The notes: generated by a model not told the origin, from the letters alone. A DNA stretch of 64,000 nt from an uncultured delta proteobacterium (GCA_963782535.1 CAWAKE010000009.1:246222-310221); one strand, 5' to 3'; shown: positions 10,456 through 31,729, numbered from the stretch's first letter. A program made the numbers and translations.

Positions 10456-11511
10456 TTGTCGGCCATCTCATGCAGCGATAAAGCTCAAACGATTATGAAG
10501 CAGCAATACTGGGAAGTTGTCCAAGCGATGCCGGCCGCCGAGATGACTGAGCGCATGCGGCGGTTCGAGGACCTCGGAATTTACGGGGTGTGGGCACCGC
10601 AACTGCACTGGCCCCCGTTCGTAACCCTGGCCGCTGCCGCGATGGCGAGCACGCGGCTGAAGCTGGGTACCGGCGTCGCGCTGGCTTTCACGCGCAGTCC
10701 GACGGAAACGGCGTTGAGCGCTCTCGACCTCGATCGGATCAGCGCAGGCAGAGCGGTGCTCGGACTCGGCACGAGCGTGCGCATGTTCAATGAACGGTTT
10801 CACGGCGTCGTCTATGGGAAGCCGGTCGCGCATCTGCGTGAAGTCGTCGAGGCAGTTCGCGCCATCATCGAACGCGGACACCAAGGCGATCTCGGGCAAA
10901 TCGATGGCACCTACCACAAGCTCGACCTGAAGGGCTTCAACACTGGCCGTAAGCCGGTGCGAGCGGCGATTCCAATTTATCTGCCCGCCCTGTTTCAAAA
11001 CACAGTGGTCCTCGCCGCGAAGATCGCAGATGGGTTGCTCGGCCATCCGCTATGGTCTCTCCAATGGATTGTCGAGCAGGCGAAGACGCTTGAGCTAGAA
11101 CTGGCCAGGGCGGGGCGTTCACGTGAGCAGTTCCATGTTAATCTGTGGAACTACGTCGCGGTGGCAAACGAACGCAAACAGGCGATCGACGATATGCGCG
11201 GAACCGTCGCATTTTATTCGAGCATCGCGCAATACGAGAAGTACTTCGCGGCGCACGGCTTTAGCGCGCAGGCTCGTGCGGTGGTTGAAGCGGCTGGGCG
11301 AAACGATTGGGCCGCAATGTTGAAAGCGGTCCCCGACGAAATGGTTACGACCTTCGCGATTGCGGGGACTGCTGACGAAGTGCGCGAGTGCGTTGATCGG
11401 ATGTGGCGGCACGCGGACTCGCTGACGCTGTCGGCACCGCAGAATTTCCTGTCGGCGGCGCGGATTGCCGAGTATCGCGAAGCGATTGTAGCGACGCTTT
11501 ACAGGACGTAG
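10456..11511 (+). CDS. LLM-class F420/flavin-dependent oxidoreductase
   Basis: 351 aa luciferase-like fold (LKLGTGVALAFTRSPTETALSALDLDRISAGRAVLGLGTS). The track ORF begins on TTG. The ATG at MKQQYW (~10495) is an alternative start. Confidence 0.8.
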   Translation: MSAISCSDKAQTIMKQQYWEVVQAMPAAEMTERMRRFEDLGIYGVWAPQLHWPPFVTLAAAAMASTRLKLGTGVALAFTRSPTETALSALDLDRISAGRAVLGLGTSVRMFNERFHGVVYGKPVAHLREVVEAVRAIIERGHQGDLGQIDGTYHKLDLKGFNTGRKPVRAAIPIYLPALFQNTVVLAAKIADGLLGHPLWSLQWIVEQAKTLELELARAGRSREQFHVNLWNYVAVANERKQAIDDMRGTVAFYSSIAQYEKYFAAHGFSAQARAVVEAAGRNDWAAMLKAVPDEMVTTFAIAGTADEVRECVDRMWRHADSLTLSAPQNFLSAARIAEYREAIVATLYRT

Positions 11512-11553
11512 GGGACCGGTTCGAACGATTGCAAAATCACGAGGAGAAAGAAA

Positions 11554-12798
11554 TTGGCAGATCCTAAACTCCGCTTTGGCGCTTTCGTGGCCCCCTTCCA
11601 TCCGGTGGACGAAAATCCGACTTTGGCACTGGAGCGCGATCTCGATCTGATTCAGCTGATGGATCGGCTCGGCTACGACGAAGTCTGGATTGGGGAACAT
11701 CATTCCGGCGGTTACGAGATCATCGCCAGCCCCGAACTGTTTATCGCGACCGCCGCCGAACGCACACGTCATATCCGGCTCGGCACCGGAGTCGTTTCGC
11801 TGCCCTACCACAATCCGTTAATGGTCGCGCAGCGAATCAATCAGCTCGATCACATCACTCGCGGGCGGACGATGTTCGGCGTGGGTCCGGGTGCGCTGCC
11901 GTCGGACGCGATGATGCTGGGGATCGAAGTCGTCAAGCAGCGCGATCGCATGGACGAAGCGCTCGATGTCATCGTCCCACTTTTGCGCGGCGAGACCGTG
12001 ACTGCGCAGACCGATTGGTTCACGCTCAACAACGCGCGTCTGCATCTCAGTCCCTATACACGGCCGCGAATCGAGATGGCGGTCGCGAGCCAGGTTTCAC
12101 CCACCGGCGCACGTGCCGCCGGCAAACATGGCCTCGGGCTGCTCTCGATCGGGGCGACGACTACCGGCGGGTTCAATGCACTCGCTGCCAATTGGGAGAT
12201 TTGCGAGGAGACCGCGCGCGATAACGCAACCAGCGTCGATCGACAATTCTGGCGCGCGGTCGGGCCGGTACATGTCGCCGAGACGCGCGAGAAGGCGCGG
12301 GAGAACGTCCGCTTCGGACTCGAGAAATGGCTATATTATTTTCGTGAAGTCGCGGCGCTGGCGCTGGCTCCGGTAGGCGGCGCCGATCCGATCGACGCCG
12401 TCGTGGACAGCGGACTCGCGGTCATCGGCACTCCCGATGATTGCATCGCGCAAATCGAAAAGCTGCAAAAGCAATCCGGCGGGTTCGGGTGCTTCCTGCA
12501 GCTTGCGCACAACTGGGCGAACTGGGAGGCGACCCAGCATTCCTATGAGATGATCGCCCGTTACGTGATGCCGCATTTTCAGGGTTCGAACACCAATCGC
12601 GATCAATCGATCGAATTTGCCCGGAGCAATTACACCGATCTGGTGGGGCAGGCGAGGGTAGCGGTCGGCACTCGCGTTGCCCAATACGTCGCCGAGAAAG
12701 GCGCACAAAATATCCAGCCCGAAGTTCTGCAGGCATTCGAATCCGAGCTCCGCACAACGCAGGGTCCGGCGAAGAAAAGGGCGGGCGGAAAAGTATGA
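11554..12798 (+). CDS. LLM-class flavin monooxygenase, limonene-1,2-monooxygenase (LimB)-like
   Basis: 414 aa; RFGAFVAPFHPVDENPTLALERDLDLIQLMDRLGYDEVWIGEHHSGGYE is the characteristic N-terminus of the LimB-type LLM subfamily. TTG start per track. Confidence 0.8.
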   Translation: MADPKLRFGAFVAPFHPVDENPTLALERDLDLIQLMDRLGYDEVWIGEHHSGGYEIIASPELFIATAAERTRHIRLGTGVVSLPYHNPLMVAQRINQLDHITRGRTMFGVGPGALPSDAMMLGIEVVKQRDRMDEALDVIVPLLRGETVTAQTDWFTLNNARLHLSPYTRPRIEMAVASQVSPTGARAAGKHGLGLLSIGATTTGGFNALAANWEICEETARDNATSVDRQFWRAVGPVHVAETREKARENVRFGLEKWLYYFREVAALALAPVGGADPIDAVVDSGLAVIGTPDDCIAQIEKLQKQSGGFGCFLQLAHNWANWEATQHSYEMIARYVMPHFQGSNTNRDQSIEFARSNYTDLVGQARVAVGTRVAQYVAEKGAQNIQPEVLQAFESELRTTQGPAKKRAGGKV

Positions 12799-12958: not shown

Positions 12959-14080
12959 TCAGTATCCGCTCAGAGTGGCGACGCGCTCGCGATGGAAGGG
13001 CGGCGCGCCGAAATAGGATTCGTTGAAGCGCGCGCGCTTGAACCACAGATGCAGATCGTGGTCCCAGGTGAAGCCGATCCCGCCATGCATCAGTACCGCG
13101 CGGTCCGCGCTGCGCATGTACACCTCGCACATTCGCGCCTTTACCATTGCGGCGGCGCGCGAGGCTTCGCGAGGCAGCGCGTCGAGTGCGTGCGCGGCGT
13201 ACCATAGCAACGAACGGGCTGGTTCCGTGTCGGCGAGGATCTCGGCGGCAGCGTGCTGCAAGGCCTGGTACGAACCGATTGGCCTGCCGAATTGCTCGCG
13301 CACCTTCGAATATTCCACCGCCATCTCGAGTGCCCGCTCAGTTCCGCCGAGCGAGTCCGCAGCGATTGCGACAGAGGCGACATCGACCAGGTGATCGTAA
13401 AGACCAGCGCCGCCGCCGAGCGCCGCCTCTGCGGGAACCACAACCGCATCGAGTTCCATTGCGCAGACCCGCCGCGTCAGGTCGAGATTTTTAAGGCGGC
13501 GGATGTAGACACCCGGATTATTCCGCTCGACCAGAAAGAGACCGAGATCGCGAACGCCCGGACCCGTACGCGCCGCCACTATCACGAAGTCTGCCACATG
13601 GGCATAAGGGACAATCATCTTGGCGCCGTTCAAGACCCATGCGCTTCCGCTCTTCCGCGCTGTAGCGTTGAGGTCGCCGGGATTGATGCTGTCGTTGGCC
13701 TCGACTATCGCGACGGTCCCGAGCGCCCGTCCTTCGGCAAGCGGCGCCAGCCAGCGATCGTTGAGATCATCGGACCCGCCGCCGGCAAGCGTCGCGGCCG
13801 CAAGCACTGACGAAAACAGAAACGGTCCGGGCAGCGCCGCGTAGCCGGATTCCTCGAGCAGCACGATCATATCGAGCATCCCGAGTCCGGCGCCGCCGAA
13901 TTTTTCCGGGACGATCAGGCCGTTCCAGCCGAGGTTGGCGATCTGCTGGTAGAGGCCGTGTGGCATCCCGGCCTCGTCGCTCATGATTTCTCGCACGCGC
14001 GTGGTCGGACATTCCCTGGATAGGAAATTGCGCGCGCTGTCCTTGAGTTGCTGTTGTTCTTCGGCGAGTCCGAAATTCAT
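12959..14080 (-). CDS. acyl-CoA dehydrogenase family protein
   Basis: 373 aa; MNFGLAEEQQQL start, FGGAGLGMLD, C-terminal YQALQH..E and GGIGFT motifs. Confidence 0.85.
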   Translation of the reverse strand: MNFGLAEEQQQLKDSARNFLSRECPTTRVREIMSDEAGMPHGLYQQIANLGWNGLIVPEKFGGAGLGMLDMIVLLEESGYAALPGPFLFSSVLAAATLAGGGSDDLNDRWLAPLAEGRALGTVAIVEANDSINPGDLNATARKSGSAWVLNGAKMIVPYAHVADFVIVAARTGPGVRDLGLFLVERNNPGVYIRRLKNLDLTRRVCAMELDAVVVPAEAALGGGAGLYDHLVDVASVAIAADSLGGTERALEMAVEYSKVREQFGRPIGSYQALQHAAAEILADTEPARSLLWYAAHALDALPREASRAAAMVKARMCEVYMRSADRAVLMHGGIGFTWDHDLHLWFKRARFNESYFGAPPFHRERVATLSGY

Positions 14081-14117: not shown

Positions 14118-15305
14118 TCAACGCCCCTTGGGCATCTTGAGGCCGCGTTCTGCGATGATATTTTTCTGGATATGCGAGGTGCCGCCGCCGATCACGAGAC
14201 CGAGCGAGAACATCCATTCATAGGGCCAGAAGCCGCGATCCAACGCGTATTCCTCGTTGCGCGCCAACATCGAATAGTCGCCCATCACTTCCATCGCGGC
14301 AGTCGAGAGGTCGTGGTTGAGTTCGGTGCCGACCAGCTTGTTGACCATCGCGGCGATTCCAGGATTGCGCCCGTGAATCGAATCGGTGAGCTGTCGCAGC
14401 ATGTGGTACTTCATCGACTCGACGCGAATCTCGAGGTCGGCGAGGCGCTGGCGGAAGACCGGATCCTTTCCCAGTGGCCTGCCGTTGCGCATGACCGATC
14501 GGGCCAGCAGCTTAAGCCGGTTGAACAGCATCTGCGTGGTGACGGTCGAGCCCAGCGCGTTGCGTTCGTGAAAGAGCGTCGTGTTGGCGACCATCCAACC
14601 TTCATTAAGTTTGCCCACGAGGTTTTCGCGCGGGACGGAGACGTTGTCGAAGAAAACCTCGTTGAAGCCGCGGTCGCCGGTCATCTGCACCAGCGGCCGG
14701 ACAGTAATCCCGGGGGTCTTCATGTCGATGAGGATGTAGGAGATGCCGCGATGCTTCGGCGCCTCGGGATCGGTACGGACCAGGCAGAACATCCAGTCGG
14801 AGTAGTGCGCGCCGGAAGTCCAGATTTTCTGGCCGTTGACGACGAATTCGTCGCCGACGATTTCAGCGCGCGTGCGCAGCGAGGCGAGGTCGGAACCCGA
14901 GCCCGGCTCGGAATAGCCCTGGCACCAAATTTCCTCGCCGCTCAGAATTTTCGGCAGGTAGCGGCGCTTCTGATCTTCGGTACCCCAGGTGATCAAGGTC
15001 GGCCCGAGCAATGGGATACCGCCGCCGACCGGTCCGGGTGCGCGCGCCCGCACCATCTCCTCGTTGACGATCGACTGTCGCACCGGGTCCATCGCCTGTC
15101 CGCCGTACTCCTTGGGCCAGGACAGTGCGAGGTATCCCTCTTCGTGCATTCGGCGATGCCAGACCTTCATCTTTTCGAGCGTGGTCTTTTCCGCATGTGC
15201 GCGGTTATCCGCACCGCGAAGTCCGCTCTTTGGCAGGTTCTCTTCGAGCCAATCGCGAACTTCCTTCCGAAAGCTCGCCTCTTCAGCAGTGTAATTCAGG
15301 TCCAT
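14118..15305 (-). CDS. acyl-CoA dehydrogenase family protein
   Basis: Internal start MDLNYTAEEASFRKEV (typical ACAD N-terminus) at 15305. Rest of the protein has the ACAD middle beta-barrel and C-terminal helical domain (CQGYSEPGSGSDLASL, IGGGTSHIQKNIIAERGL). The 98-aa upstream extension in the track ORF is low-complexity. Confidence 0.8.
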   Translation of the reverse strand: MDLNYTAEEASFRKEVRDWLEENLPKSGLRGADNRAHAEKTTLEKMKVWHRRMHEEGYLALSWPKEYGGQAMDPVRQSIVNEEMVRARAPGPVGGGIPLLGPTLITWGTEDQKRRYLPKILSGEEIWCQGYSEPGSGSDLASLRTRAEIVGDEFVVNGQKIWTSGAHYSDWMFCLVRTDPEAPKHRGISYILIDMKTPGITVRPLVQMTGDRGFNEVFFDNVSVPRENLVGKLNEGWMVANTTLFHERNALGSTVTTQMLFNRLKLLARSVMRNGRPLGKDPVFRQRLADLEIRVESMKYHMLRQLTDSIHGRNPGIAAMVNKLVGTELNHDLSTAAMEVMGDYSMLARNEEYALDRGFWPYEWMFSLGLVIGGGTSHIQKNIIAERGLKMPKGR

Positions 15306-15546: not shown

Positions 15547-17370
<1,824 letters not shown>

Positions 17371-17458: not shown

Positions 17459-18619
17459 TCAGTACGATCGTGGCATTCTGAGCAGATGCTCGCCGACGTA
17501 ACTCAGGATCAGGTTGTTGGAGATCGGAGCAGTACGGTAGAGGCGAGCTTCGCGCCATTTGCGCTCGACGTGATACTCCTTGGCAAAGCCGTAACCGCCG
17601 AGCGCGTTCATAGCGGCCTCACCGGCCTCCCAAGCGGCTTCAGAAGCCATATACTTAGTCATGTTCGCTTCGGCGCCACAGGGTAGTCCGGCGTCGAAGA
17701 GTGCGGCCGCCTTGAGCCTCATCAGATCCGCTGCCTGCACGGCGACGTGAGCCTTGGCGATGGGAAACTGCACACCCTGATTCATGCCGATGGGCCGGTC
17801 GAAGACGCGGCGCTCGTTCGAATACTTGACTGAGTATTCGACAAACCAACGTCCGTCGCCGATAGATTCGCTGCCGACCAGAATGCGCTCGGCGTTGAGC
17901 GAACTTAATACATAGGAAAAACCCTTGCCTTCCTCGCCGATGAGCGCATCGCGCGGCAGGGTCAGGTTATCGATGAAGAGCTGGTTGGTCCCGTGATTGA
18001 CCATGGTGGCGATCGGCACCGCCCTGATCGCGTCGCCACACTCTCTGAGATTGACGAGAAAGAGACTCATGCCATCGGTCTTTTTCTTGACCTGGTCGAA
18101 CGGCGTTGTGCGGGTAAGCAGCAGCAGCATGTCCGAGTGCTGAAAGCGCGAGGTAAAGATTTTCTGTCCGTTGATCACGTACTGATCGCCCTGGCGGCGG
18201 GCGAAGGTTTTAATCCTGGGGGTCTCCGAACCCGCGTCCGGCTCGGTGATGCCGAAGGATTGCAGGCGCAACTCGCCCGAGGCGATGCGCGGCAGGTAAT
18301 TCTGTTTCTGACCGGCGCTGCCATGCTTGAGGATCGAGGCCATGGTGTACATTTGCGCATGGCAGGCGACCGCATTCCCGCCGCTGCAATTGATCTCTTC
18401 GAGAATGATCGACGCCTCGAGCATCCCGAGTCCGGCACCGCCATATTCCTCGGGAATCAACGCAGCGAGCCAGCCGGCCTCGCTCAAGGTTTTGACGAAT
18501 TCGTCGGGATAGGCATTTTTCTCGTCGCAACCGCGCCAATACTCATTGCCGAAACGGGCGCACAGGGCGGCGACAGCGGCGCGGATTTCCTTCTGGTTAT
18601 CGGAATACTCGAAATCCAT
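17459..18619 (-). CDS. acyl-CoA dehydrogenase family protein
   Basis: 386 aa; MDFEYSDNQKEIRAAV start, EEYGGAGLGMLEA, GITEPDAGSE, QMYTMASIL. Confidence 0.85.
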   Translation of the reverse strand: MDFEYSDNQKEIRAAVAALCARFGNEYWRGCDEKNAYPDEFVKTLSEAGWLAALIPEEYGGAGLGMLEASIILEEINCSGGNAVACHAQMYTMASILKHGSAGQKQNYLPRIASGELRLQSFGITEPDAGSETPRIKTFARRQGDQYVINGQKIFTSRFQHSDMLLLLTRTTPFDQVKKKTDGMSLFLVNLRECGDAIRAVPIATMVNHGTNQLFIDNLTLPRDALIGEEGKGFSYVLSSLNAERILVGSESIGDGRWFVEYSVKYSNERRVFDRPIGMNQGVQFPIAKAHVAVQAADLMRLKAAALFDAGLPCGAEANMTKYMASEAAWEAGEAAMNALGGYGFAKEYHVERKWREARLYRTAPISNNLILSYVGEHLLRMPRSY

Positions 18620-19527: not shown

Positions 19528-19694
19528 GGCAATACCTCGATGTTCCAAACCAAATCAGGAGATCTTTCAGGCCGCAAAGCGCCGCAAAGGAATCGGATAC
19601 ATTGCGCGGATCCGGGCCACGATACTACGTAAAAGTGCAGTTGTCCGATGACGATCCGAGATGCAGCGAGACGCTAGCCCCTGTGCGCGAAGCC

Positions 19695-20609: not shown

Positions 20610-20903
20610 ATTGATAACCTCCATCTGCGTGACGATGCGGCGGCACGCCCTCGCAATAACCTAATCCCTTGGAATCCATGAGACCGCTGCGATTATCGCC
20701 GATTACGAGCGGCGATCAAGCTCTGGCGAGAAATGACGGAACTCACGGCCCGGACGCTGCATCATGGCTTGCGTCTGCGAAATCCAATCGGGTGGGAGGC
20801 AGAACCGCCCGTGCGATCAGCCGCGTCGCGAAATCGCTTGCTTGCCGCGCGCCGATTTTTGTGAACATAGGCAATATCAATTGCATCGTGCGGGACGGGA
20901 ACT

Positions 20904-22703: not shown

Positions 22704-22793
22704 AGCGTGCGGGAATTTGCGATGCAGAGCAAAGTCGATCGCCCGCATGAATTGTAGCAATCGATACCAATCGAAACATTCGAGGAGGAACCA

Positions 22794-23120
22794 ATGAGTA
22801 CGACCCCATCGAAACCTGCGAATCCGCGGGAACGTCTTCGTCCGATAGTGCCCAAGCTAATCGATTTGACGGAAAAGGTGGTTTACGGCGATGTATGGGA
22901 GCGACCCGGACTCTCGAAACGGGATCGCAGCCTGGTCACGGTAGCTGCGCTGGTGGCGCTTTATCGGCCTGAGCAGCTTCGCGTACATCTGGGCCGCGCG
23001 CTCGAAAACGGAGTGACTAAAGACGAGCTCAGCGAACTCATCACACATTTGGCATTTTACTCCGGATGGCCGACGTCGATGACCGCCGCGTCGATCGCCA
23101 AAGACGTATTCGAGAGCTGA
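22794..23120 (+). CDS. carboxymuconolactone decarboxylase-family protein
   Basis: 108 aa; VVYGDVWERPGLSKRDRSLVTVAALVA..ELITHLAFYSGWP matches CMD/AhpD-like fold. GAGGAGG RBS upstream. Confidence 0.7.
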   Translation: MSTTPSKPANPRERLRPIVPKLIDLTEKVVYGDVWERPGLSKRDRSLVTVAALVALYRPEQLRVHLGRALENGVTKDELSELITHLAFYSGWPTSMTAASIAKDVFES

Positions 23121-24601: not shown

Positions 24602-24616
24602 GCTGGAGTGGTTGAG

Positions 24617-25087
24617 ATGGCAAGCCTGCGCGAGCGCGTCGAGGAGTTTCTGTTTTTCGAGGCGAAGCTAATCGACGAACATCGATACGATGAATGGCTT
24701 GGGCTGTGGACTGAGGACGCCCGCTACTGGGTGCCGTGCAACACGGACGATGCTGACCCGTCGCTGCAAGCGATGATCATCTACGATAATCGCGCCCGCC
24801 TGAACGAGCGGATATATCGGATGACCAGCGGGGCGGCTTGGGCGCAACAGCCGCGGTCGCGCACGCGGCGGCTAATCGCGAACGTCGAGGTGCGCGAAAT
24901 TGACGGCGGCTATGCGGTGGAATCGAATTGCATAATCGCGGAATTGCGACGGTCGCGGCAGGATATTTTCGCCGCGCGAATGCTGCATACGCTGCGGCCA
25001 TCTGGCGACAGCTTTCGTATCGCCCTCAAGAAAGTACTGTTGCTCAACAATGACGAGCCGATCGATAATCTGACCTTCCTGGTCTGA
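24617..25087 (+). CDS. ring-hydroxylating dioxygenase beta subunit
   Basis: NTF2-like beta-subunit signature EEFLFFEAKLIDEHRYDEWLGLWTEDARYWVP. Begins 16 nt after the alpha stop (ATG at MASLRE; the track lists a GTG 9 nt earlier). Confidence 0.8.
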   Translation: MASLRERVEEFLFFEAKLIDEHRYDEWLGLWTEDARYWVPCNTDDADPSLQAMIIYDNRARLNERIYRMTSGAAWAQQPRSRTRRLIANVEVREIDGGYAVESNCIIAELRRSRQDIFAARMLHTLRPSGDSFRIALKKVLLLNNDEPIDNLTFLV

Positions 25088-25243: not shown

Positions 25244-26575
25244 CTATTTGGTTCCCAAGGCCGCGAGCGGACCGCGATCCACTACTGGTACACGCTTGGA
25301 TCCCTGCGCCAGTGCGACGCTACCGGGGGTGCGCTGGAACGGATCGCGAAGGTCGATTTCCTGCGCATGAGCCTTGAGGGCAGGGATTACTTCCTCGGCA
25401 AACAGTCGCATGCTGGTGCGCCGGTCGTCGTCGCCGATGGGACCTTGAATACTCAGAATAATAAAAATCCCGGTGCGCAGAACGCTCATGATTGACTTGA
25501 TCTTGGGGATCAAGGTTTTCGGCGTGCCGGCGAGGACCTGCATGTTCTGTTGTCCGCGCATCAACGCGGCGTGCAGTTTGCGCCGGATCTCCGCGTAATC
25601 GAGTGCGCCGTCATCGCTGCCGTGCATCTGCTGGCGCACCTTCTCGCCGCTGATGCCGAGCCACGCGCTGGTCTGCTGTTTCGCCAGTATGCGAATTGCG
25701 GCCTTGGAGTTGTAGCCGGGGGGCATCGTGAACTCCGGCGCCGAGAACGCATTCTGGCCACCGCCGTAAACGAATCCTTCCGCGACCTTTTGCGCCTTTT
25801 CTTCCGTTTCTCCGACGGCGGTCGCAACCATGTAGCCAAAGTTTTCAGGGCCGGCCTGATACCCATGCTTGGCGGCTTCGTCGGCGTAAAAGTCCCACAG
25901 GTCGCAAGTTGGCGCGAGCGGGGTGCCGAGCCCGATGTAGGGGTAGCGATGCGCGGCGCACCACTGCACGGTTTCGGGACTGAGCGTGCCGGGAATCCAC
26001 ATCGGCGGATGCGGCTTCTGATACGGCAGCGCCCACGGATTGACGTGCCGATAATGAAAATGCTTGCCCTCGTAACGCCACGGGCCGGGCCGCGTCCACG
26101 CCTGCACGATGAAGTCGTGGGCCTCGTTGAACATCTCGCGGTTGTAAGCCGGATTCGCGTTGTTGAAGAATTGCTCGGAGCCGGCGCCACGGACCCATCC
26201 GGTGACGAGGCGGCCGCGCGAAATGAGATCGATCTCGGCCAGCTCCTCGGCCATCCGCAACGGATGCTTGATCACCGGGAGCGGATTGCCAATCAGCACG
26301 AGGCGTACGCGCTTGGTCCGATACGCGAGCACCGACGCCTCGACGTTCATCACCGAGCCCATGCAAATGGGGTTGCCGTGATGTTCGTTGAGCGCGACTA
26401 CGTCGAAACCCAGGTCCTCGGCGTAACAGTTTTCGTCGAGGTAGTAATGGTAGTCGTCGGCCGCTTTTTCACGGTCGTATAATTTATTCGATATGCCGAA
26501 AAACGCACCGTTGCGGAGAATCTCTTCTTCGGGGAGCCAGCGATAGGGCCGTTCGGTGAAATAACCTATCTGCAT
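25244..26575 (-). CDS. LLM-class flavin-dependent oxidoreductase (long, LimB-like subgroup)
   Basis: Trimmed to MQIGYFTERPY; NEHHGNPICMGSVMNV, LVLIGNPLPVIKHPLRMAEELAEIDLIS. 444 aa. The track ORF (504 aa) has an implausible Arg/Ser-rich leader. Confidence 0.8.
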   Translation of the reverse strand: MQIGYFTERPYRWLPEEEILRNGAFFGISNKLYDREKAADDYHYYLDENCYAEDLGFDVVALNEHHGNPICMGSVMNVEASVLAYRTKRVRLVLIGNPLPVIKHPLRMAEELAEIDLISRGRLVTGWVRGAGSEQFFNNANPAYNREMFNEAHDFIVQAWTRPGPWRYEGKHFHYRHVNPWALPYQKPHPPMWIPGTLSPETVQWCAAHRYPYIGLGTPLAPTCDLWDFYADEAAKHGYQAGPENFGYMVATAVGETEEKAQKVAEGFVYGGGQNAFSAPEFTMPPGYNSKAAIRILAKQQTSAWLGISGEKVRQQMHGSDDGALDYAEIRRKLHAALMRGQQNMQVLAGTPKTLIPKIKSIMSVLRTGIFIILSIQGPIGDDDRRTSMRLFAEEVIPALKAHAQEIDLRDPFQRTPGSVALAQGSKRVPVVDRGPLAALGTK

Positions 26576-26926: not shown

Positions 26927-27892
26927 ATGGCACGATGCGGCATTTCACTTTCACCGATGTCGGGAATTCCCCATCCGGAGTTCATACAACTCGCACGCGA
27001 GGTCGAGGACGCCGGCTTCAGCGGGGTCTTCATTCCGGAGGCCAACAATGACGGGTTGATGTGTTGCTACGCAGTCGCCGGCGCGACCAAGCGGGTCGAG
27101 ATCGGGACCTGGATCGTCAATATTTATTTGCGCGAGCCCACCCTATGCGCGGCCGCAGCCGAAATGGTTCAAGACGCCGCCGGTGGCCGCTTCATCCTGG
27201 GTTTGGGCGTGAGTCATCGTCCGGCCCTGGAAGCGCGCGGAATCCAGATGGGCAACGCCCGCGACCGCCTGCGCCGCGACACACAGATTATTCGCGCGAC
27301 GCTCGGCGGCGAGACCGCAATGTTCGGGATGAAATTTCGCCAGCCAAAAAACCCGATTCCTATCTACTTTGCGGCTCTCGCACTCGAAACTGCCCGCCTC
27401 GCCGGCGAAATTGCGGACGGCCTGATGCTTTACCTGTGCCCGCCGGAGCGGATGCGCAAATCGATCGATGTCGCACACGCAGCGGCCCAGCAGCACGGTC
27501 GCAAGCCGTCGGCGATCGCGGCGACGGTCGGATTGCCGGTTTTTCTGCACAGCGACCTAAAGGTCGCGTACGCTGCGGCTCAACGCGGACTTGCCTTCTA
27601 TGGGGCGCTGCCGTTTTACAATCGCCTGATTGCGCGCAGCGGCTTCGAATCCGCCGCGAATGCGATCATGGCGGCGGCCAAGCGCAACGACGCCAGCGCG
27701 ATGGCGGCTGCGGTGACGGAGCCGATGATCGATTCACTGGCGCTCGTTGGCCCCGAATCTCGATGCTTCGAGCGGCTGGAGCAGTACCGCGAACACGGCG
27801 CCGAGCTTCCAATCATAGTTCCCAACGCGGTTAACGAGGATTACACAACTGCCGTGCGCCGCATTGTGAAGTCATTCGCGAAGCTCAATTAG
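26927..27892 (+). CDS. LLM-class F420-dependent oxidoreductase
   Basis: AAAGGA RBS 7 nt upstream. GFSGVFIPEANND..FILGLGVSHRPALEARG and C-terminal AVNEDY pattern of F420-type LLMs. Confidence 0.8.
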   Translation: MARCGISLSPMSGIPHPEFIQLAREVEDAGFSGVFIPEANNDGLMCCYAVAGATKRVEIGTWIVNIYLREPTLCAAAAEMVQDAAGGRFILGLGVSHRPALEARGIQMGNARDRLRRDTQIIRATLGGETAMFGMKFRQPKNPIPIYFAALALETARLAGEIADGLMLYLCPPERMRKSIDVAHAAAQQHGRKPSAIAATVGLPVFLHSDLKVAYAAAQRGLAFYGALPFYNRLIARSGFESAANAIMAAAKRNDASAMAAAVTEPMIDSLALVGPESRCFERLEQYREHGAELPIIVPNAVNEDYTTAVRRIVKSFAKLN

Positions 27893-27918: not shown

Positions 27919-28479
27919 ATGACTTTATTACCATATCTCGACGAGCGAGACGCCTCACCGGAGGTGCTGAAAATCCTCAAGGCCCAGCCGCAGGTGCTCA
28001 ACGTCCAGCGGGTGATGGCCAACGCTCAGGGTATTTTCCCTCATCGCAGCAAACTGAGTAACGCGCTCTTTACTCAGATCAAACTGGACCCGCGGTTGCG
28101 GGAAATCGCGATTCTGCGCACTGCGAAGGTCTGCCATTCAATTTACGAGTGGACCCAGCATGTACCTGCGGCCCGCCACGTCGGAGTCACCGAGGAGCAG
28201 ATTGCGGCGATCGAGCAATGGGGCGGAGCCGGCTGCTTCAGCGAAGTTGAGCGCCTGGTGTTGCAGTTGACCGACGAGGTCAACGCAAACGTCAAGGGCA
28301 GGCGCGAAACGGTCGAAGCACTGAAGAGAATTCTGAGCCCGGCGGAAATAATCGAGTTACTCATTATAATTGGCCACTGGCGCCAAACCGCGAGCGTTCT
28401 CGAAACCATCGAGGTCGATCTGGAAGACTTCGCGGGAACCATGAATATCCTCGAGGGGATCGCGCGCAAGCCGGCCTAG
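27919..28479 (+). CDS. carboxymuconolactone decarboxylase-family protein
   Basis: 186 aa, two CMD-like halves (..LREIAILRTAKVCHSIYEWTQH.. and ..ELLIIIGHWRQ..). AAGGAAG RBS. Confidence 0.7.
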   Translation: MTLLPYLDERDASPEVLKILKAQPQVLNVQRVMANAQGIFPHRSKLSNALFTQIKLDPRLREIAILRTAKVCHSIYEWTQHVPAARHVGVTEEQIAAIEQWGGAGCFSEVERLVLQLTDEVNANVKGRRETVEALKRILSPAEIIELLIIIGHWRQTASVLETIEVDLEDFAGTMNILEGIARKPA

Positions 28480-28523: not shown

Positions 28524-29336
28524 TTGCCGGTGGATAGAACTGACTTTCGATATTTGCTGGTTGAAGACGACGGGATGATCCGCCGCCTGACGCTGAATCG
28601 TCCGGACCGTCTGAATGCGCTCAATTTTCGAATCGGCGCAGAATTGCTGGACGCATTGGAAGATTGCGATCGAAATCCTGACGTCCGGGTGGTGATTCTG
28701 ACCGGGGCCGGGCGCGCGTTTTGCGCCGGAGACGATCTGCGCGGAATGAACGAGCCGGGAGAACCGGACCGCAGGTACCTCGATCCGATCAAGCAATACG
28801 TCGAAGGCGAGGGCCGGTGGCCGTTGATTGTCGCGCGAATGAGGGCGCTTTCGAAGCCGGTAATTGCGATGATCAACGGACATGCGCACGGCGCGGGGTT
28901 TAACCTGGCGCTGGGCTGCGACCTGCGCGTAATTGCGGACTCGGCCACTATGTCGATTCCGTTCGCGAAGCGCGGAATCGCCACCGGCACAAATTTGCTG
29001 CAACAGTTCGTTGGCATCGGCAAAGCGATGGAATGGGCGCTGCTCGGCCCGGTATTGTCGGCGGCGGAGGCTGAGCGCTGGGGATTGGTGAGCCGGGTGA
29101 CGCTGCTCGCCGAGCTGGAGCATGAGACCATGAAGCTCGCGCGGGAGCTGTCCGAAGGTCCGACGCTGGTGCTCGGCTACACCAAATCAGCGGTGGTTCA
29201 TGGGTGGCAGGCGCCACCGGAGACCGCCTACCGATATCAAGGCCAAGCAGTAACCCAATGTCAGCGAACTGAGGATTTCACCGAAGGTATTCAGGCCTTT
29301 CGGGAAAAGCGACCACCGCGTTTTCGCGGACGCTAA
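28524..29336 (+). CDS. enoyl-CoA hydratase/isomerase family protein
   Basis: LTLNRPDRLNAL, AFCAGDDLRG, AMINGHAHGAGFNLALGCDLRV crotonase motifs. TTG start per track. Confidence 0.8.
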   Translation: MPVDRTDFRYLLVEDDGMIRRLTLNRPDRLNALNFRIGAELLDALEDCDRNPDVRVVILTGAGRAFCAGDDLRGMNEPGEPDRRYLDPIKQYVEGEGRWPLIVARMRALSKPVIAMINGHAHGAGFNLALGCDLRVIADSATMSIPFAKRGIATGTNLLQQFVGIGKAMEWALLGPVLSAAEAERWGLVSRVTLLAELEHETMKLARELSEGPTLVLGYTKSAVVHGWQAPPETAYRYQGQAVTQCQRTEDFTEGIQAFREKRPPRFRGR

Positions 29337-29443: not shown

Positions 29444-30520
29444 TCACACCGCAGCGAAATGCGGCATCACCTCGTCCATCAGCATGCGCTGGGAGTTCGC
29501 CCAGCCTTCGGAATTTTCCGATTGATCGAAAGTAAGTACGAGCAAGCAGCCGAAGCCGCCGGTGTCGTGCTGCATGTGTCCCAATTTTTCGGTGACGGTT
29601 TTGGGCGAGCCGACGAGCCAGCAATGGTCAGCCAGGTATTCAATCGTGACATCCGAATCCGGCACTTCCGGATGATGTTTGTACAAGCTGACCATGCCGA
29701 AGGATTTGAACAGCGGCAGCAGATAATCCCGATAGACTCGTCCGAGCATGCCATTGATGGCTTGATCGCGCGCTTCCTTATCGGTTTCTGCTATATACAC
29801 TTCGCGCGCAACCCGCCAGTCTTTGCGAGACGGAGTGCGGCCGGTTTTTTCGGCACCCGCGACTACCGCGTTCCAATGGGTCTTCAGGTAGCTATCGCTG
29901 AGGGCGACACTCATCGGCATGAAGCCGCGCTCGCCGGCGAATTTCAACGTATCCGAGCCCGGCGTCAGACCGGCAATTCCGATTGGCGGATGCGGTTTCT
30001 GGAACGGTCGAATATGAAATTTCAAGGTGTCGAGCATCGTATCGATACGGTTCACCGTCCAGTACTTGCCCACGTATTCGAAGGGCTCGGTGCTTTCCCA
30101 CAGACGCAGGATGATGTCGAGGGCCTCGAGCGTCATGCGTCGGTTTTCGCCGCCGGCGCCATCGACGTTAAACAGCTTCCAGTCGCTGGGCAGGCCGCTG
30201 GTGCCGACGCCAAACATGAAGCGGCCTTGCGCCAGGTGATCCAAATACGCCACGCGATGCGCCAGCTCGGCCGGATGATGATAGGGCAGCAGGTGAGCTC
30301 CGGGGCAGAGCTTGATTTTTTTGGTGCGCAGCAGGCCTTGCGCGATGAGTAAGTCCGGCGCCGGATTCGGCTCCCACGGGGAGGTGAAGTGCTCACCCAT
30401 CCAGGCTTCTTCGAAACCCAGCTTGTCGCACAGTTCGAGATGCTCCAGGTCCCATTGATGACCCGCGAGAAGAGTCCTCTCCGGTGGGTGGGAGGGCATC
30501 ATGAATACACCTGCTTTCAT
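29444..30520 (-). CDS. LLM-class flavin-dependent oxidoreductase (LimB-like)
   Basis: Trimmed to MKAGVFMMPSHPPERTL; EEAWMGEHFTSPWEP, KLCPGAHLLPYHHPAELAHRVAYLDHLAQGRFMFGVG. The 34-aa leader in the track ORF is not protein-like. Confidence 0.8.
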   Translation of the reverse strand: MKAGVFMMPSHPPERTLLAGHQWDLEHLELCDKLGFEEAWMGEHFTSPWEPNPAPDLLIAQGLLRTKKIKLCPGAHLLPYHHPAELAHRVAYLDHLAQGRFMFGVGTSGLPSDWKLFNVDGAGGENRRMTLEALDIILRLWESTEPFEYVGKYWTVNRIDTMLDTLKFHIRPFQKPHPPIGIAGLTPGSDTLKFAGERGFMPMSVALSDSYLKTHWNAVVAGAEKTGRTPSRKDWRVAREVYIAETDKEARDQAINGMLGRVYRDYLLPLFKSFGMVSLYKHHPEVPDSDVTIEYLADHCWLVGSPKTVTEKLGHMQHDTGGFGCLLVLTFDQSENSEGWANSQRMLMDEVMPHFAAV

Positions 30521-30844
30521 ACGATCTCCTTGCCGACAGCTTGCTGTTCCATCGCACATTAAGGGATCGGAGCGCGTGCGGTCAAAGACCCCGGAAGTCG
30601 CGCGCAGAGTCCCGTCAACCATCGAGATCTATCTGTTGGCAGCCGAAAAGTCACCTGTTCTGGCCGCCGAAATCCTGGCCGCGATCAGCCGGGATTTGCC
30701 GCTGAAATTACAGTGGACGTGTTAGGATCGACTTCGAGCGAATCGCCGCGTGAAATTCCGGCAAGATTTGAGTATCGTGCATCCCGCCTCGAGTAGCGTG
30801 CAAACTTTTTCGATGAGCGCCATTATGGGCGCAGGAGAGCTTCG

Positions 30845-31729
30845 ATGGACATAGGCATTCTGGTCGCGACCACGGCTCGAACGGGAGCTATAGATGCGAT
30901 CGCTCGGGCGGTCGAGAACGGCGGATACGAATCGCTCTGGATACCCGAACATCCGGTGATTCCGGTCGGGTTCAAGACCGCAGTTCCCGGCGGTGGCAAG
31001 TTGCCCGAACACTACGGCCGCTGGGTCGATCCGTTCGTCGCGCTTTCAATCGCCGCAGCCGTGACGAAGCGAATCAAGCTTGCGACCGGCATCTGTCTGT
31101 TGCCGGAGCGCGAGCCGCTGATCACGGCCAAGTCGGTAGCGAGCCTCGACCTCTACTCTGGAGGCCGCGTGGTGCTGGGCGTTGGCGCGGGATGGCTGCG
31201 GGAAGAGACCGAGGCGATGGGCGCCCACTTCGGATCGCGCTGGAAGCGGCTGCGCGAGACGGTCGAGGCGATGCGCGTGCTCTGGTCAGAACCGGAGCCG
31301 GCCTACGCGGGCGAGTTGGTTCATTTCCCCGCCGTCAGATGCGAACCGAAGCCCTTGCAGAAGCCCTATCCGCCAATTCTTCTCGGCGGTCACGGACCGA
31401 AGGCCCTCGAGCGGGTGGCGCGGACCTATGATGGGTGGATGCCGCTGGTGCCCAACCCTGAATCGCTCAAGCGCGATGTGACGGCGTTGCGGAAACTCGC
31501 TGCCGACCACGGACGCGACCCCAAGGCGTTGCATATCACCGCGCTGGTTGATCCGGGCGAAAACGGACCGTCGTCAGACGAGCTGCAGAAGTACGCCGAG
31601 GCCGGAGCAAGCCGCGTAGTGCTCTTCTCGCAACGGATGGCGATTGCGATCGCCGACGGTGCAGCACTCGAACTGATCAAACGTTTCGAGCCAGTCGTGG
31701 AACAGGCGCGAAAGATCGGGACAAAGTGA
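30845..31729 (+). CDS. LLM-class F420-dependent oxidoreductase
   Basis: 294 aa; MDIGILVATTAR.., ESLWIPEHPVIP, KLATGICLLPEREPLITAKSVASLDLYSGGRVVLGVGAGW. Confidence 0.8.
   Translation: MDIGILVATTARTGAIDAIARAVENGGYESLWIPEHPVIPVGFKTAVPGGGKLPEHYGRWVDPFVALSIAAAVTKRIKLATGICLLPEREPLITAKSVASLDLYSGGRVVLGVGAGWLREETEAMGAHFGSRWKRLRETVEAMRVLWSEPEPAYAGELVHFPAVRCEPKPLQKPYPPILLGGHGPKALERVARTYDGWMPLVPNPESLKRDVTALRKLAADHGRDPKALHITALVDPGENGPSSDELQKYAEAGASRVVLFSQRMAIAIADGAALELIKRFEPVVEQARKIGTK

Follow-up and report, generated by a model that had tools for sequence, protein, structure and literature searches.

Catabolic units rich in luciferase-like monooxygenase paralogs in a Binataceae contig: probably a lineage-specific mosaic rather than a single limonene-type pathway

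The limonene route of Rhodococcus erythropolis DCL14 proceeds via LimB, LimA (a limonene-epoxide hydrolase, LEH), LimC or a diol dehydrogenase, a monoterpene ketone Baeyer-Villiger monooxygenase (BVMO), an epsilon-lactone hydrolase, CoA activation, and beta-oxidation, with the epoxide hydrolase and SDR/diol dehydrogenase as defined steps (PMC4097962). The camphor pathway of the Pseudomonas putida CAM plasmid employs type II BVMOs, the 2,5- and 3,6-diketocamphane monooxygenases (DKCMOs) (PMC4631483, PMC6352141). LimB and the DKCMOs were placed in one subfamily in a study of SAR202 (Chloroflexota), which reported paralog expansions of FMN/F420-type luciferase-like monooxygenases (LLMs) together with dehydrogenases and beta-oxidation enzymes (Landry 2017, PMC5395668). 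Multiple ladA-type LLMs were also noted in Binatota (Murphy 2021, PMC8262859). Among type I BVMOs, the PtlE/PntE/PockeMO-type clade accepts bulky substrates, including steroids and bulky ketones (PMC6058054).

Here, we analyzed a window of 64,000 nt from an uncultured delta proteobacterium (GCA_963782535.1 CAWAKE010000009.1:246222-310221), in which the region from 10,456 to 31,729 had been interpreted, in a sequence-only reading, as a dispersed Lim-like supercluster. We consider it probable that this region is a lineage-specific mosaic of paralog-rich catabolic units for hydrophobic compounds in Binataceae (Binatota), not one limonene-type pathway; a terpenoid or alicyclic substrate appears plausible for some of its units. 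Profile searches recovered all previously named genes at their coordinates and in the expected Pfam families (LLMs, BVMO, MBL, acyl-CoA dehydrogenases [ACADs], crotonases, HMG-CoA lyase [HMGL], HIBADH, and CMDs), and their arrangement in short divergent and convergent units, not one operon, was borne out. Absent from that inventory were three further LLMs (LLM1, LLM4, and LLM6) and a Rieske oxygenase alpha/beta pair. Gene starts shorter than the maximal ORFs apply to LLM1, the large ACAD, LLM3, and LLM5, and that of LLM1 rests on a 338-aa gene call in the close relative L165. The features are as follows.

10187..10273, +, tRNA-Leu (anticodon UAA), left edge of the catabolic stretch (Rfam, 59.5 bits; ARAGORN)
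10496..11511, +, LLM1, luciferase-like flavin oxidoreductase, 338 aa (PF00296, 177.9 bits)
11554..12798, +, LLM2, 414 aa (profile match)
12959..14080, -, small-subunit-like ACAD, PimD/IpdE2-like (TIGR03203, 186 bits, cut-off 653; IpdE2, 162 bits, cut-off 450)
14118..15305, -, large-subunit-like ACAD, PimC-like, 395 aa, ATG at 15305 (TIGR03204, 311 bits, cut-off 624)
15547..17370, +, type I BVMO, 607 aa, PtlE/PntE/PockeMO clade
17459..18619, -, ACAD3, generic homomeric-type acyl-CoA dehydrogenase (profile match)
18742..19548, -, ECH1, enoyl-CoA hydratase (crotonase) (profile match)
19695..20624, -, HMG-CoA-lyase-family enzyme
20904..21878, +, beta-hydroxyacid dehydrogenase, HIBADH/tartronate-semialdehyde-reductase-like (199 bits, below cut-off)
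21894..22703, +, MBL-fold hydrolase, lactonase clade (HxHxDH motif HLHYDH, residues 95-100)
22794..23120, +, CMD1, small PcaC-like carboxymuconolactone decarboxylase-family protein (PcaC, 74.5 bits, cut-off 155.7)
23294..24601 and 24608..25087, +, Rieske ring-hydroxylating oxygenase alpha and beta, BenA/AntA/HcaE-like (237 bits, cut-off 781)
25244..26575, -, LLM3, 443 aa, Binatia-rich LLM subfamily with generic annotation only
26927..27892, +, LLM4, first gene of the co-directional LLM4-CMD2-ECH2 unit
27919..28479, +, CMD2, AhpD/CMD-type, 186 aa, second gene of this unit
28524..29336, +, ECH2, PaaG-like crotonase, third gene of this unit
29444..30520, -, LLM5, 358 aa (as its homologs), type II BVMO-like (DKCMO similarity)
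30845..31729, +, LLM6, 294 aa (TIGR03619 member, 271.5 bits, above the 166.9-bit cut-off)
35961..40709, -, aromatic-type operon: SDR, Rieske alpha2, Rieske beta2, Amidohydro_2, LigB-like dioxygenase (profile search)
42953..43330, +, LEH-family protein (PF07858, 67.8 bits)

An RND/MMPL-like transporter is encoded next door to the region, and glyoxalase/extradiol-fold proteins were found at 47682 and 62744.

Conservation of gene neighborhood was assessed for five anchors (BVMO, MBL, LLM2, LLM3, and LLM5) within 10 kb on either side of each homolog, covering 80 BVMO-centered and 80 MBL-centered loci plus the contexts of LLM2, LLM3, and LLM5 homologs (73-89% identity). None of the five anchors kept the rest of the region genes as neighbors. 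Across the BVMO-centered loci no window neighbor recurred, the commonest neighbor family being SDR (11/80), and the BVMO-ACAD adjacency was not conserved. Homologs of LLM5 (83-87% identity) adjoin hisB, hisD, aroA, prmC, and prfA; those of LLM2 (73-75%) have as neighbors either an ACAD and a crotonase other than those of the window or an acyl-CoA ligase together with a TetR regulator; and those of LLM3 (81-88%), labeled Binataceae, occur in three unrelated contexts. The only recurrent units were HIBADH-MBL-CMD, ACAD-crotonase, and LLM1-LLM2 with the ACAD pair, the last in a single contig of ~94% identity. L007, the nearest relative with comparable sequence, retains only the BVMO, ACAD3 (92% identity), ECH1 (85%), and PFK (87%), with a BVMO-ACAD3 gap of 2.9 kb (amidohydrolase and alpha/beta hydrolase) versus 90 bp in the window. 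Homology stops at window position 19527, and in place of the 21.6 kb present in the window, L007 carries 3.7 kb encoding DUF3313 and sulfatase proteins; missing is the entire 19.6-41.1 kb segment, from HMGL, its first gene, through the SDR. The proposed supercluster thus failed both in the synteny of its anchors and in the closest relative. At the left edge, L165 contains a 4.5-kb insertion that begins within ~25 bp of the tRNA-Leu 3' end, its alignment to the window breaking between 10273 and 10298. Some links between units may nevertheless be older than they look, since in L003 the BVMO is closely followed by an 84% identical copy of LLM1 and homologs of LLM3 and LLM4 are 4 kb apart in L172.

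The region contains six LLMs in 21.3 kb, versus three in the remaining 42.7 kb of the window, and six comparison loci around Binataceae-type LLM genes held ~4 extra LLMs in roughly 120 kb. This amounts to 4-8 times the local background, with a Poisson probability of ~1e-4 to 5e-3 in a post hoc test on a region that the earlier reader had picked for its density. As the mutual identity of the 10 LLM paralogs in the 64 kb is at most 36%, they are considered old and deeply divergent. Other Binataceae contigs also carry LLM genes among ACADs, crotonases, esterases, SDRs, and amidohydrolases. As an argument against a mosaic, the LLM density might stem from functional clustering and not solely from a hot spot of accessory genes.

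LLM1 is nearest to the TIGR03617 "F420-type" class, below threshold (194 bits versus a 278-bit cut-off). LLM2 belongs to a highly conserved family with homologs of 72-97% identity in Binataceae, Parvibaculum, and Tepidicaulis, which JGI/IMG names limonene 1,2-monooxygenase, an automatic label. LLM5 matches 3,6-DKCMO (4uwm) at 1.3e-60 over essentially its full length (residues 1-354 against 3-372), with an identity in the 30-40% range as judged by eye, whereas LLM2 shows only local similarity to 3,6-DKCMO and 29% identity to LLM5 across 360 aa. Hence, among the three LLMs that had been called LimB-like, this affinity holds for LLM2 by its JGI name and for LLM5 by diketocamphane monooxygenase similarity, but not for LLM3, a member of a different, generic LLM subfamily. 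In the LLM4-CMD2-ECH2 unit, the intergenic gaps are 26 and 44 bp.

The BVMO scored 805.7 bits against the PtlE family NF045818, below the 1,100-bit equivalog cut-off, and matched the structures of PockeMO (5mq6, 1.5e-133) and PAMO (1e-74). It carries BVMO motifs in stretches of 27 and 15 residues, and an N-terminal extension precedes the FAD-binding Rossmann motif beginning at residue 77. Its clade occurs widely across Proteobacteria, Actinomycetota, and Binatia, with the best relatives in Candidatus Binataceae metagenome-assembled genomes (72-81% identity). Divergent from the BVMO gene lies the large ACAD, and judging from its profile matches the small ACAD at 12959 is probably one half of a heteromeric enzyme.

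We propose that the mosaic extends to ~48 kb in the chromosome and that its short transcription units, at least eight in number, were each separately inherited or acquired and are probably regulated independently. They would encode six LLMs, a type I bulky-ketone BVMO (NADPH/FAD), and a Rieske oxygenase, as well as a probable heteromeric ACAD pair, an ACAD-crotonase pair, HMGL, and a dehydrogenase-MBL lactonase-CMD unit. LLM2, LLM5, and the BVMO might oxygenate or lactonize hydrophobic ketones, probably alicyclic or branched, relying on other parts of the genome for reduced flavin or NADPH. CoA thioesters produced by ligases or transferases encoded elsewhere would be the substrates of the ACAD and crotonase units, and HIBADH-MBL-CMD with the adjacent Rieske pair may process an intermediate, a lactone or a carboxylate, that belongs to a different route of the muconolactone or organic-acid type. 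Together, these units would form a toolbox rather than a single ordered pathway. Profile searches of the 64-kb window detected no acyl-CoA ligase, CoA-transferase, thiolase, carboxylase, or flavin reductase, and its ORFs of at least 150 aa, all assigned except those overlapped by called genes, contained no AMP-binding, CoA-transferase, or carboxylase domain, in agreement with the sequence-only reading, which had noted no acyl-CoA ligase or biotin carboxylase.

The HIBADH-MBL-CMD unit and its neighbors invite the alternative that aromatic-acid catabolism forms the core of the island, with two Rieske dioxygenases, a PcaC-like CMD plus lactonase, and the SDR-Amidohydro_2-LigB operon, and with the LLMs, BVMO, and ACADs as bystanders. 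Both Rieske alpha/beta pairs are BenA/HcaE-like (the second, at 38074-39851, being 37% identical to the first), CMD1 adjoins the lactonase-clade MBL, the layout of the 35961-40709 operon is that of classic dihydroxylation, dehydrogenase, and extradiol cleavage, and the glyoxalase/extradiol-fold proteins would fit as well. We regard this explanation as unlikely, considering that all scores fall far under equivalog cut-offs, that no ferredoxin or reductase is encoded close to the first pair or elsewhere in the window, and that six LLMs, the BVMO, and three ACADs would be left unexplained. Homologs of the MBL, 60-69% identical in soil metagenomes, had HIBADH beside them in 19 of the 80 MBL-centered loci and CMD in ~20, but never the Rieske pair, the BVMO, or other region genes. 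Their other neighbors were MmgE/PrpD, TctC, OYE-type reductase, CoA-transferase III, and HpcH/CitE lyase genes. The description of the MBL as AHL-lactonase-type applies at clade level but not to the specific family (58.6 bits versus a 375-bit cut-off).

A single dispersed Lim-like pathway for limonene or monocyclic terpenoids, leading from epoxidation or hydroxylation through ketone formation, BV lactonization, and MBL hydrolysis to Liu/Atu-like beta-oxidation with HMG-CoA-type cleavage, seems quite improbable to us, although the enzymes themselves lend it some color. Several oxygenases have their nearest characterized or annotated relatives in terpenoid or alicyclic ketone chemistry: the JGI name of LLM2 homologs and the DKCMO-like LLM5, DKCMOs sharing a subfamily with LimB (PMC5395668), point this way, as does a sesquiterpenoid BVMO as the nearest relative of the window BVMO. 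The assignment of HMGL as HMG-CoA-lyase-like was upheld (NF004283, 294 bits, above the 246-bit cut-off; structure matches to 6nds at 8e-68 and 2ftp at 1.8e-62). The LEH-family protein matches LEH structures (1e-17), to which its ERVD and WRDYFD motifs align, and catalytic Arg, Asp, Asp, and Asn are kept; such an intact catalytic triad in the same window, together with oxygenases converging on alicyclic/terpenoid ketones, would speak against a mosaic. None of the six region LLMs is SsuD-type (top score 43.8 bits versus a 518-bit cut-off), and no Ksh/Hsa, fadD19, ltp2, or ipdAB-type genes occur across the 64-kb window, so the alkanesulfonate and steroid identities that had been named as refuting a Lim-like route were not found. 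On the other hand, NCBI names the same LLM2 homologs generic LLM oxidoreductases, and ACAD3 and ECH1 are generic family members rather than LiuA/LiuC-like enzymes. The MBL shares no homology with MlhB-type hydrolases, MlhB being an alpha/beta hydrolase, and it accompanies organic-acid genes elsewhere. Within the 10.5-31.7 kb region, profile searches found no epoxide hydrolase, SDR, diol dehydrogenase, or regulator, and the CoA ligase, thiolase, and carboxylase that the route also requires (PMC4097962) are likewise missing, contradicting the claim that every chemical step of the Rhodococcus route is covered; the SDR (39885) and LEH-family (42953) candidates lie 8-11 kb outside, in other units. 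With no anchor keeping another as a neighbor and HMGL through SDR wholly missing in L007, what persists of the terpenoid interpretation are the affinities of LLM2, LLM5, BVMO, and HMGL, not a single ordered supercluster.

Polycyclic substrates, for instance rings of the sterol, hopanoid, or resin-acid-like type, opened by the BVMO and followed by dehydrogenation of bulky acyl-CoAs by a heteromeric ACAD, would suit a polycyclic ketone monooxygenase as best solved BVMO relative in a clade taking steroids and bulky ketones (PMC6058054), the PimCD/IpdE-type resemblance of the ACAD pair, the neighboring transporter, and the sterol/hopanoid-like substrates invoked in SAR202-type proposals (PMC5395668), but are very unlikely given IpdE2 and PimCD scores far under cut-offs, the unconserved BVMO-ACAD adjacency, a window devoid of an HsaABCD-like set, IpdAB CoA-transferase, Ltp2/ChsH aldolase, and FadD ligase, and the absence from it of a KshA-type oxygenase, since its Rieske enzymes are BenA/HcaE-like and include beta subunits.

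Compared with described systems, the mosaic that we favor shares family-level counterparts with Rhodococcus DCL14, namely, the LLM that JGI labels limB-like, the LEH-family protein with its catalytic residues, a type I BVMO, lactonase-type hydrolases, ACADs, and crotonases. It differs in that the LEH and SDR candidates belong to units outside the claimed region, the lactonase is MBL-fold and not an alpha/beta hydrolase, a CoA ligase is lacking, and the counterpart genes are not clustered in any relative examined. LLM5 aligns near full length with the CAM-plasmid 3,6-DKCMO, of the same TIM-barrel luciferase-like family; however, the window lacks a camphor hydroxylase, an OTEMO-type partner set, and a flavin reductase, and the closest LLM5 homologs reside among housekeeping genes. 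The best family and structure matches of the BVMO are PtlE/PntE and the fungal PockeMO (PMC6058054), with which it shares the N-terminal extension, yet it remains below the PtlE equivalog cut-off, is not part of a terpene biosynthetic cluster, and belongs to a clade without conserved neighbors. As in the Pseudomonas Liu/Atu leucine/acyclic-terpene pathway, an HMGL, here similar to P. aeruginosa LiuE (2ftp), adjoins a crotonase and an ACAD, but biotin carboxylase and carboxyltransferase subunits are missing from the window, isovaleryl-CoA dehydrogenase is not the nearest match of ACAD3, ECH1 is generic, and HMGL is unlinked to ACAD3-ECH1 in L007. The flavin monooxygenase expansions of SAR202 appear to be the closest analogy to the window's toolbox. 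Unlike SAR202, the window represents the phylum Binatota, most of its related contigs come from terrestrial metagenomes, soil included, and it adds a type I BVMO of the PtlE/PockeMO clade. In common with SAR202, it holds many deeply divergent LLM paralogs, at least one of them DKCMO-like (type II BVMO), interleaved without fixed operon structure with ACADs, crotonases, ring-hydroxylating oxygenases, and SDRs.

The sequence-only reading had proposed a Lim-like supercluster for alicyclic and terpenoid degradation at 10456-31729. Genes in this region were called as open reading frames (ORFs) whose third-position GC well exceeds the bulk GC of 59-64% and were scanned against Pfam and NCBIfam. All twelve coordinates proposed earlier coincide with real ORF boundaries, and the family stated for each ORF was confirmed by these scans. 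The named genes are therefore present, but three luciferase-like monooxygenases (LLM1, LLM4, and LLM6) and a pair of Rieske oxygenase subunits had been overlooked. Several maximal ORFs in the region overstate the true gene length.

Genes called in the region (window coordinates, strand, product)
10496-11511, plus strand, LLM1
11554-12798, plus strand, LLM2
12959-14080, minus strand, small-subunit-like acyl-CoA dehydrogenase (ACAD)
14118-15305, minus strand, large-subunit-like ACAD
[quoted passage not shown]
17459-18619, minus strand, ACAD3
18742-19548, minus strand, crotonase ECH1
19695-20624, minus strand, HMG-CoA-lyase-family enzyme (HMGL)
20904-21878, plus strand, HIBADH-like dehydrogenase
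21894-22703, plus strand, metallo-beta-lactamase-fold (MBL) hydrolase
22794-23120, plus strand, CMD1, a small protein of the carboxymuconolactone decarboxylase (CMD) family
23294-25087, plus strand, Rieske oxygenase alpha and beta subunits
25244-26575, minus strand, LLM3
26927-27892, plus strand, LLM4
27919-28479, plus strand, CMD2
28524-29336, plus strand, crotonase ECH2
29444-30520, minus strand, LLM5
30845-31729, plus strand, LLM6

A domain scan of all genes in the region revealed no regulator, short-chain or other alcohol dehydrogenase (SDR/ADH), epoxide hydrolase, CoA ligase or transferase, thiolase, 3-hydroxyacyl-CoA dehydrogenase, carboxylase, ferredoxin, or flavin reductase, and these functions are absent from the region because no space is left for additional genes. 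Across the whole window, domain scans found no CoA-transferase, thiolase-like, or AMP-binding gene and no flavin reductase or nitroreductase domain; the partner NAD(P)H:flavin reductase expected for a type II BVMO may be encoded elsewhere. The earlier statement that acyl-CoA ligase and biotin carboxylase are missing from the whole window holds, with all ORFs of at least 150 amino acids accounted for (excluding those overlapped by a called gene), and neither the called genes nor the unassigned ORFs of the window contain a carboxylase domain.

The proposal of a single cluster did not survive comparison of gene neighborhoods. For none of five anchor genes (BVMO, LLM5, LLM2, LLM3, and MBL) was the co-localization of pathway genes conserved in relatives. 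Among 80 genome loci (±10 kb around the BVMO homolog), no window neighbor was recurrent, and de novo clustering of ORFs located at most 6 kb away yielded no neighbor family in more than 11 of the 80. Even with Binataceae BVMO orthologs (79-81% identity), homology reaches only about 20-30 bp past the start codon in the upstream direction. In L007, the nearest relative with several common genes, the order BVMO, ACAD3 (92%), ECH1 (85%), and PFK (87%) is kept, with only ACAD3 and ECH1 adjacent, and the genes upstream of the BVMO are wholly unlike those of the window. The BVMO-ACAD3 gap spans 2.9 kb in L007, with Amidohydro_3 and alpha/beta hydrolase genes, but 90 bp in the window. The ECH1-PFK interval is 3.7 kb in L007 (16821-20483), containing a DUF3313 lipoprotein gene and a split sulfatase gene, compared to 21.6 kb in the window (19548-41109), where it holds the genes from HMGL to an SDR at 40.7 kb. 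The BVMO ortholog of L007 (9890-11833) is itself spread over two frames, reflecting either a pseudogene or a long-read assembly error, and one related metagenome-assembled genome (MAG; locus L056, 10001-14410) carries two convergent BVMO paralogs, 80% and 60% identical to the window BVMO.

The remaining anchors gave a similar picture. LLM5 homologs (83-87% identity) adjoin hisB, hisD, aroA, prmC, prfA, and rpmE. At 73-75% identity, LLM2 homologs sit beside either an ACAD and crotonase unlike those of the window or a TetR regulator together with an acyl-CoA ligase. LLM3 homologs (81-88% identity) were found in three contexts, each different: an ACAD pair accompanied by amidohydrolases plus a CoA-transferase, an SDR with an amidase, and an aldo-keto reductase with icd. 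The 94%-identical metagenome contig L165, from JGI 3300081965, retains the order RNase II, OpgC, LLM1, LLM2, and ACAD pair, as expected at strain or species distance. In 80 metagenome loci around MBL homologs, only HIBADH (19 loci, at most 70% identity) and CMD1 (about 20 loci, at most 71%) were recurrent among the window genes. Rieske, BVMO, and HMGL genes never accompanied MBL homologs in these 80 loci, and LLM-like matches were near them in two, at 24-26% identity. Other common MBL neighbors encode MmgE/PrpD, TctC, an OYE-type reductase, CoA-transferase III, an HpcH/CitE lyase, CinA, and an M81 peptidase.

Because the neighbors around the anchors differ, only small units have evidence in their favor, namely HIBADH-MBL-CMD1, ACAD3-ECH1, and the two Rieske subunits. 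The ACAD pair is probably a unit, and LLM4-CMD2-ECH2 can be grouped by spacing alone. Nothing found joins these units into one pathway. Of the 80 loci from soil and other metagenomes, about 20 carry the HIBADH-MBL-CMD unit (20904-23120), with identities of 58-71% (L109, L114, L119, L140, L147, L150, L152, L159, L160, L162, L163, and others), and OYE-type reductase, MmgE/PrpD, TctC, or CoA-transferase III genes frequently accompany it.

Accessory genes accumulate in flexible regions for nonfunctional reasons, and this region does look flexible, considering its start at a tRNA-Leu gene, an insertion in L165, the absence of most of the segment from L007, and the presence of IS transposases. The tRNA-Leu(UAA) gene (10187-10273) is located directly upstream of LLM1 at the region start. 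L165 harbors a 4.5-kb insertion (4254-8744) between window positions 10273 and 10298, at most about 25 bp from the tRNA-Leu 3' end, encoding a 555-amino-acid GerE/HTH protein and hypothetical proteins. This suggests that the tRNA-Leu site is a hot spot for integration. Neither an integrase nor an att repeat was evident with the L165 insertion, and a search for an att repeat of the tRNA-Leu 3' end matched the tRNA itself only. Two adjacent DDE transposase genes (DUF772, DDE_Tnp_1) lie on the minus strand at 50894-51865 and 52116-53435 and coincide with the GC minimum of the window (about 0.53 at 48-50 kb). A window-wide repeat search detected no inverted repeats, long repeats, or composite-transposon structure, its sole similarity being a chance-level 60-nt match between two ACAD genes, and no compositional break was found. 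When the 21-kb stretch was compared with plasmids by megablast, only short gene-fragment matches and no known catabolic plasmid island were returned. Counts from scans for sigma-70 promoters and intrinsic terminators at 10-30 kb did not exceed the shuffled expectation, and the tRNA was the only match in an Rfam scan. The convergent BVMO and ACAD3 genes are separated by 88 bp, within which a perfect all-GC hairpin of 8 bp, followed by a T-rich tail (17411-17431), looks like a real terminator; it is the only convincing such site in the region.

LLM genes are concentrated in the region, with 6 in 21.3 kb versus 3 in the remaining 42.7 kb of the window. As background, six Binataceae-type loci around other LLM genes contained about 4 further LLMs within roughly 120 kb. 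The Poisson probability of this concentration is about 1e-4 to 5e-3, in a test that is post hoc because the region had been selected for that density.

Among these LLMs, LLM5 aligns end to end with 3,6-diketocamphane monooxygenase (4uwm; 1.3e-60, residues 1-354 on 3-372), and by this full-length similarity it is a predicted type II (FMN, luciferase-like) BVMO of the diketocamphane monooxygenase (DKCMO) type. Its best match in the protein collection shows 87% identity. LLM2 matched DKCMO only locally, falling short of full-length similarity, and a structure search with LLM3 returned no DKCMO match. Within the region, LLM2 and LLM5 are more similar to each other (29% over 360 amino acids) than either is to another LLM. 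The LLM2 family is strongly conserved, with 72-75% identity between Binataceae and Parvibaculum or Tepidicaulis; its members are named limonene 1,2-monooxygenase in JGI and generic LLM oxidoreductase in NCBI. LimB and DKCMOs have been placed in one subfamily (PMC5395668), and the putative LimB membership draws on the JGI labels and this subfamily statement. LLM3 belongs to a distinct Binatia-rich subfamily bearing generic names only, and many LLM2 and LLM3 homologs carry Binataceae or Binatia labels. LLM1, LLM4, and LLM6 resemble so-called F420-type LLM classes, and of these three only LLM6 passes a family cutoff.

The sequence-only reading had named SsuD-type LLMs as evidence against itself, and none was found, the six region LLMs scoring at most 43.8 bits against an SsuD cutoff of 518 bits. 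An assignment of the LLMs as LadA-type alkane hydroxylases was rejected; LadA is missing from the structure matches of the four LLMs searched, and this reading is further disfavored by scores of at most 46 bits for the NtaA/DmoA family in the six LLMs scored with NCBIfam. A previous study had reported multiple ladA-type LLM genes from Binatota (PMC8262859). The best solved relative of LLM2, 7bip, was discarded as a functional clue, being a weak match from a paper on polyketide (rishirilide) biosynthesis.

The BVMO contains the Rossmann motifs GGGFGG at residue 77 and GTGATA at residue 254, as well as the fingerprints [15 protein letters not shown] at residue 107 and [12 protein letters not shown], the latter being the FxGxxxHxxxWD motif with Y replacing F. 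This combination of two Rossmann and fingerprint motifs assigns it, at the sequence level, to the type I BVMOs. It scored 805.7 bits against the PtlE/PntE equivalog NF045818 (neopentalenolactone/pentalenolactone D synthase), under the 1100-bit cutoff, and among solved structures it is closest to polycyclic ketone monooxygenase (PockeMO; 1.5e-133), with phenylacetone, cyclohexanone, and steroid monooxygenases trailing at about 1e-70. The PtlE/PockeMO clade takes bulky substrates (PMC6058054). The closest relatives of the BVMO are from Candidatus Binataceae MAGs, at 72-81% identity (GTDB contigs, one genome per species). The lineage is placed as Candidatus Binatota; Binatia; Binatales; Binataceae.

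HMGL scored 294 bits with NF004283, over the 246-bit cutoff, and matched HMG-CoA lyases in the PDB at 1e-52 to 8e-68, making its family assignment solid; its exact sequence had no match in the protein collection. ACAD3 best matched a generic ACAD and glutaryl-CoA dehydrogenase, with isovaleryl-CoA dehydrogenase (IVD) at just 1e-35 to 1e-41, and ECH1 is under every equivalog cutoff; both are generic. The ACAD pair (12959 and 14118) is similar to heteromeric PimCD/IpdE-type enzymes, far under the cutoffs (IpdE2, 162 bits versus 450). The MBL protein keeps the HxHxDH metal site as HLHYDH. The sequence-only reading had likened it to AHL lactonases (AiiA, AidB, and AttM), to which it appears only distantly related, with 58.6 bits versus a 375-bit cutoff and about 4e-10 for AiiA in the PDB. 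CMD1 is PcaC-like.

Further catabolic genes are located in the window outside the region.

Catabolic features outside the region (window coordinates, strand, product)
35961-40709, minus strand, SDR-headed operon with an aromatic-catabolism layout
53595-54758, minus strand, LLM7, LuxA-like
54799-55656, minus strand, SMP-30/gluconolactonase-like lactonase, directly upstream of LLM7

The operon encodes, in order, the SDR, Rieske alpha and beta subunits, an Amidohydro_2 protein (37034-38020), and a LigB-type extradiol dioxygenase, with no accompanying ferredoxin or reductase. LLM7, which is LuxA-like and not DKCMO-like, and the SMP-30-like protein possibly form a monooxygenase-lactonase pair, better-looking than that of the region. 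Right after LLM6, genes for a BNR/Ycf48-like beta-propeller and an 804-amino-acid RND/MMPL-like membrane protein (32199-35684) might act together in the transport of hydrophobic compounds; L081 likewise carries an MMPL-like gene, together with a LolA-like (TP_0789) gene. An ACAD-fold gene with an Acyl-CoA_dh_2 C-terminal domain (43479-44707) extends over two frames (43479-43856 and 43766-44707), probably due to a frameshift or as a pseudogene, and L007 encodes an intact 401-amino-acid relative with 30% identity. An ArsR-type regulator gene followed by an SBF/ACR3-like transporter gene (48594-50370), amid catabolic genes, is a probable arsenite-resistance pair. A 100-amino-acid ORF at 60529-60831 matches the C-terminal part of catalase only (Catalase and Catalase-rel domains) and is likely a gene remnant.

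We rate the region as an ordinary but real feature. Some of its units (LLM2, LLM5, the BVMO, and perhaps the ACAD pair) would be compatible with oxidation of alicyclic, terpenoid-like, or bulky hydrophobic substrates. The HIBADH-MBL-CMD1 unit and the adjacent Rieske pair look like a different, lactone- or carboxylate-type chemistry. Plant terpenoids bring in much of the carbon of the soils in which Binatota are abundant. A Binataceae-specific alicyclic/terpenoid catabolic island, composed of strain-shuffled units and combining LLM2 as a LimB-type epoxidase, a protein of the limonene-epoxide-hydrolase (LEH) family, type I and type II BVMOs, non-canonical MBL/SMP-30 lactonases, and a carboxylase-independent HMG-CoA-lyase step, seems improbable to us; if real, it would give the uncultured phylum Binatota its first proposed route of terpene degradation. 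If the region is a mosaic, the lesson for paralog-rich uncultured lineages, such as Binatota and SAR202, is caution: runs of LLM, BVMO, ACAD, and crotonase genes fit almost any alicyclic scheme, and pathway annotation needs synteny or expression evidence. The modest gain of this work is a Binataceae example of a dense, divergent flavin-monooxygenase neighborhood and a small recurrent beta-hydroxyacid dehydrogenase-MBL lactonase-CMD unit, widespread in soil metagenomes. Three oxygenases, LLM2, LLM5, and the BVMO of the PtlE/PockeMO clade, stand out as candidates for acting on terpenoid ketones.

The Rhodococcus limonene route proceeds via limonene 1,2-monooxygenase, epoxide hydrolase, diol dehydrogenase, and BVMO to lactone ring opening, CoA activation, and beta-oxidation (Marmulla and Harder, PMC4097962). 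The claim that the region covers every chemical step of this route is incorrect, because epoxide hydrolase, dehydrogenase, and CoA activation have no candidate within 10456-31729. Unlike the Lim cluster, the region encodes no LimA counterpart, neither LEH nor another epoxide hydrolase, and no SDR/ADH that could act as carveol or limonene-diol dehydrogenase, the only SDR of the window being at 39885-40709. It also lacks an alpha/beta-hydrolase gene for an MlhB-type epsilon-lactone hydrolase, the candidate here being MBL-fold. A type I BVMO, nearest to PtlE and PockeMO, is present and would be the candidate for acting on monocyclic monoterpene ketones. The window does encode a 125-amino-acid LEH-family protein (42953-43330), outside the region and in a separate unit 30 kb from LLM2, beyond PFK and adjoining the split ACAD-fold gene. 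It keeps the catalytic Arg-Asp-Asp triad and Asn, with Trp in place of Tyr53, as also found in LEH chain 5aif, its second-best structure match.

Of the Liu/Atu-like beta-oxidation proposed earlier, the HMG-CoA lyase (LiuE) has a family counterpart, and the biotin-dependent carboxylase (LiuBD/AtuCF) is absent from the window. The genes compared with its isovaleryl- or citronellyl-CoA dehydrogenase and methylglutaconyl-CoA hydratase were ACAD3 and ECH1, both generic. Steroid catabolism, raised by the sequence-only reading as grounds for reassignment, is not supported, as no KshA, HsaABCD, FadD19, Ltp2, or IpdAB markers occur in the window. The Rieske enzymes are two-subunit and BenA/HcaE-like. 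The closest described phenomenon appears to be the SAR202 expansion of flavin monooxygenases accompanied by dehydrogenases and beta-oxidation enzymes (PMC5395668). As in that expansion, divergent LLM paralogs are interspersed here with dehydrogenase and beta-oxidation genes, amounting to 10 Bac_luciferase genes in 64 kb with at most 36% identity.
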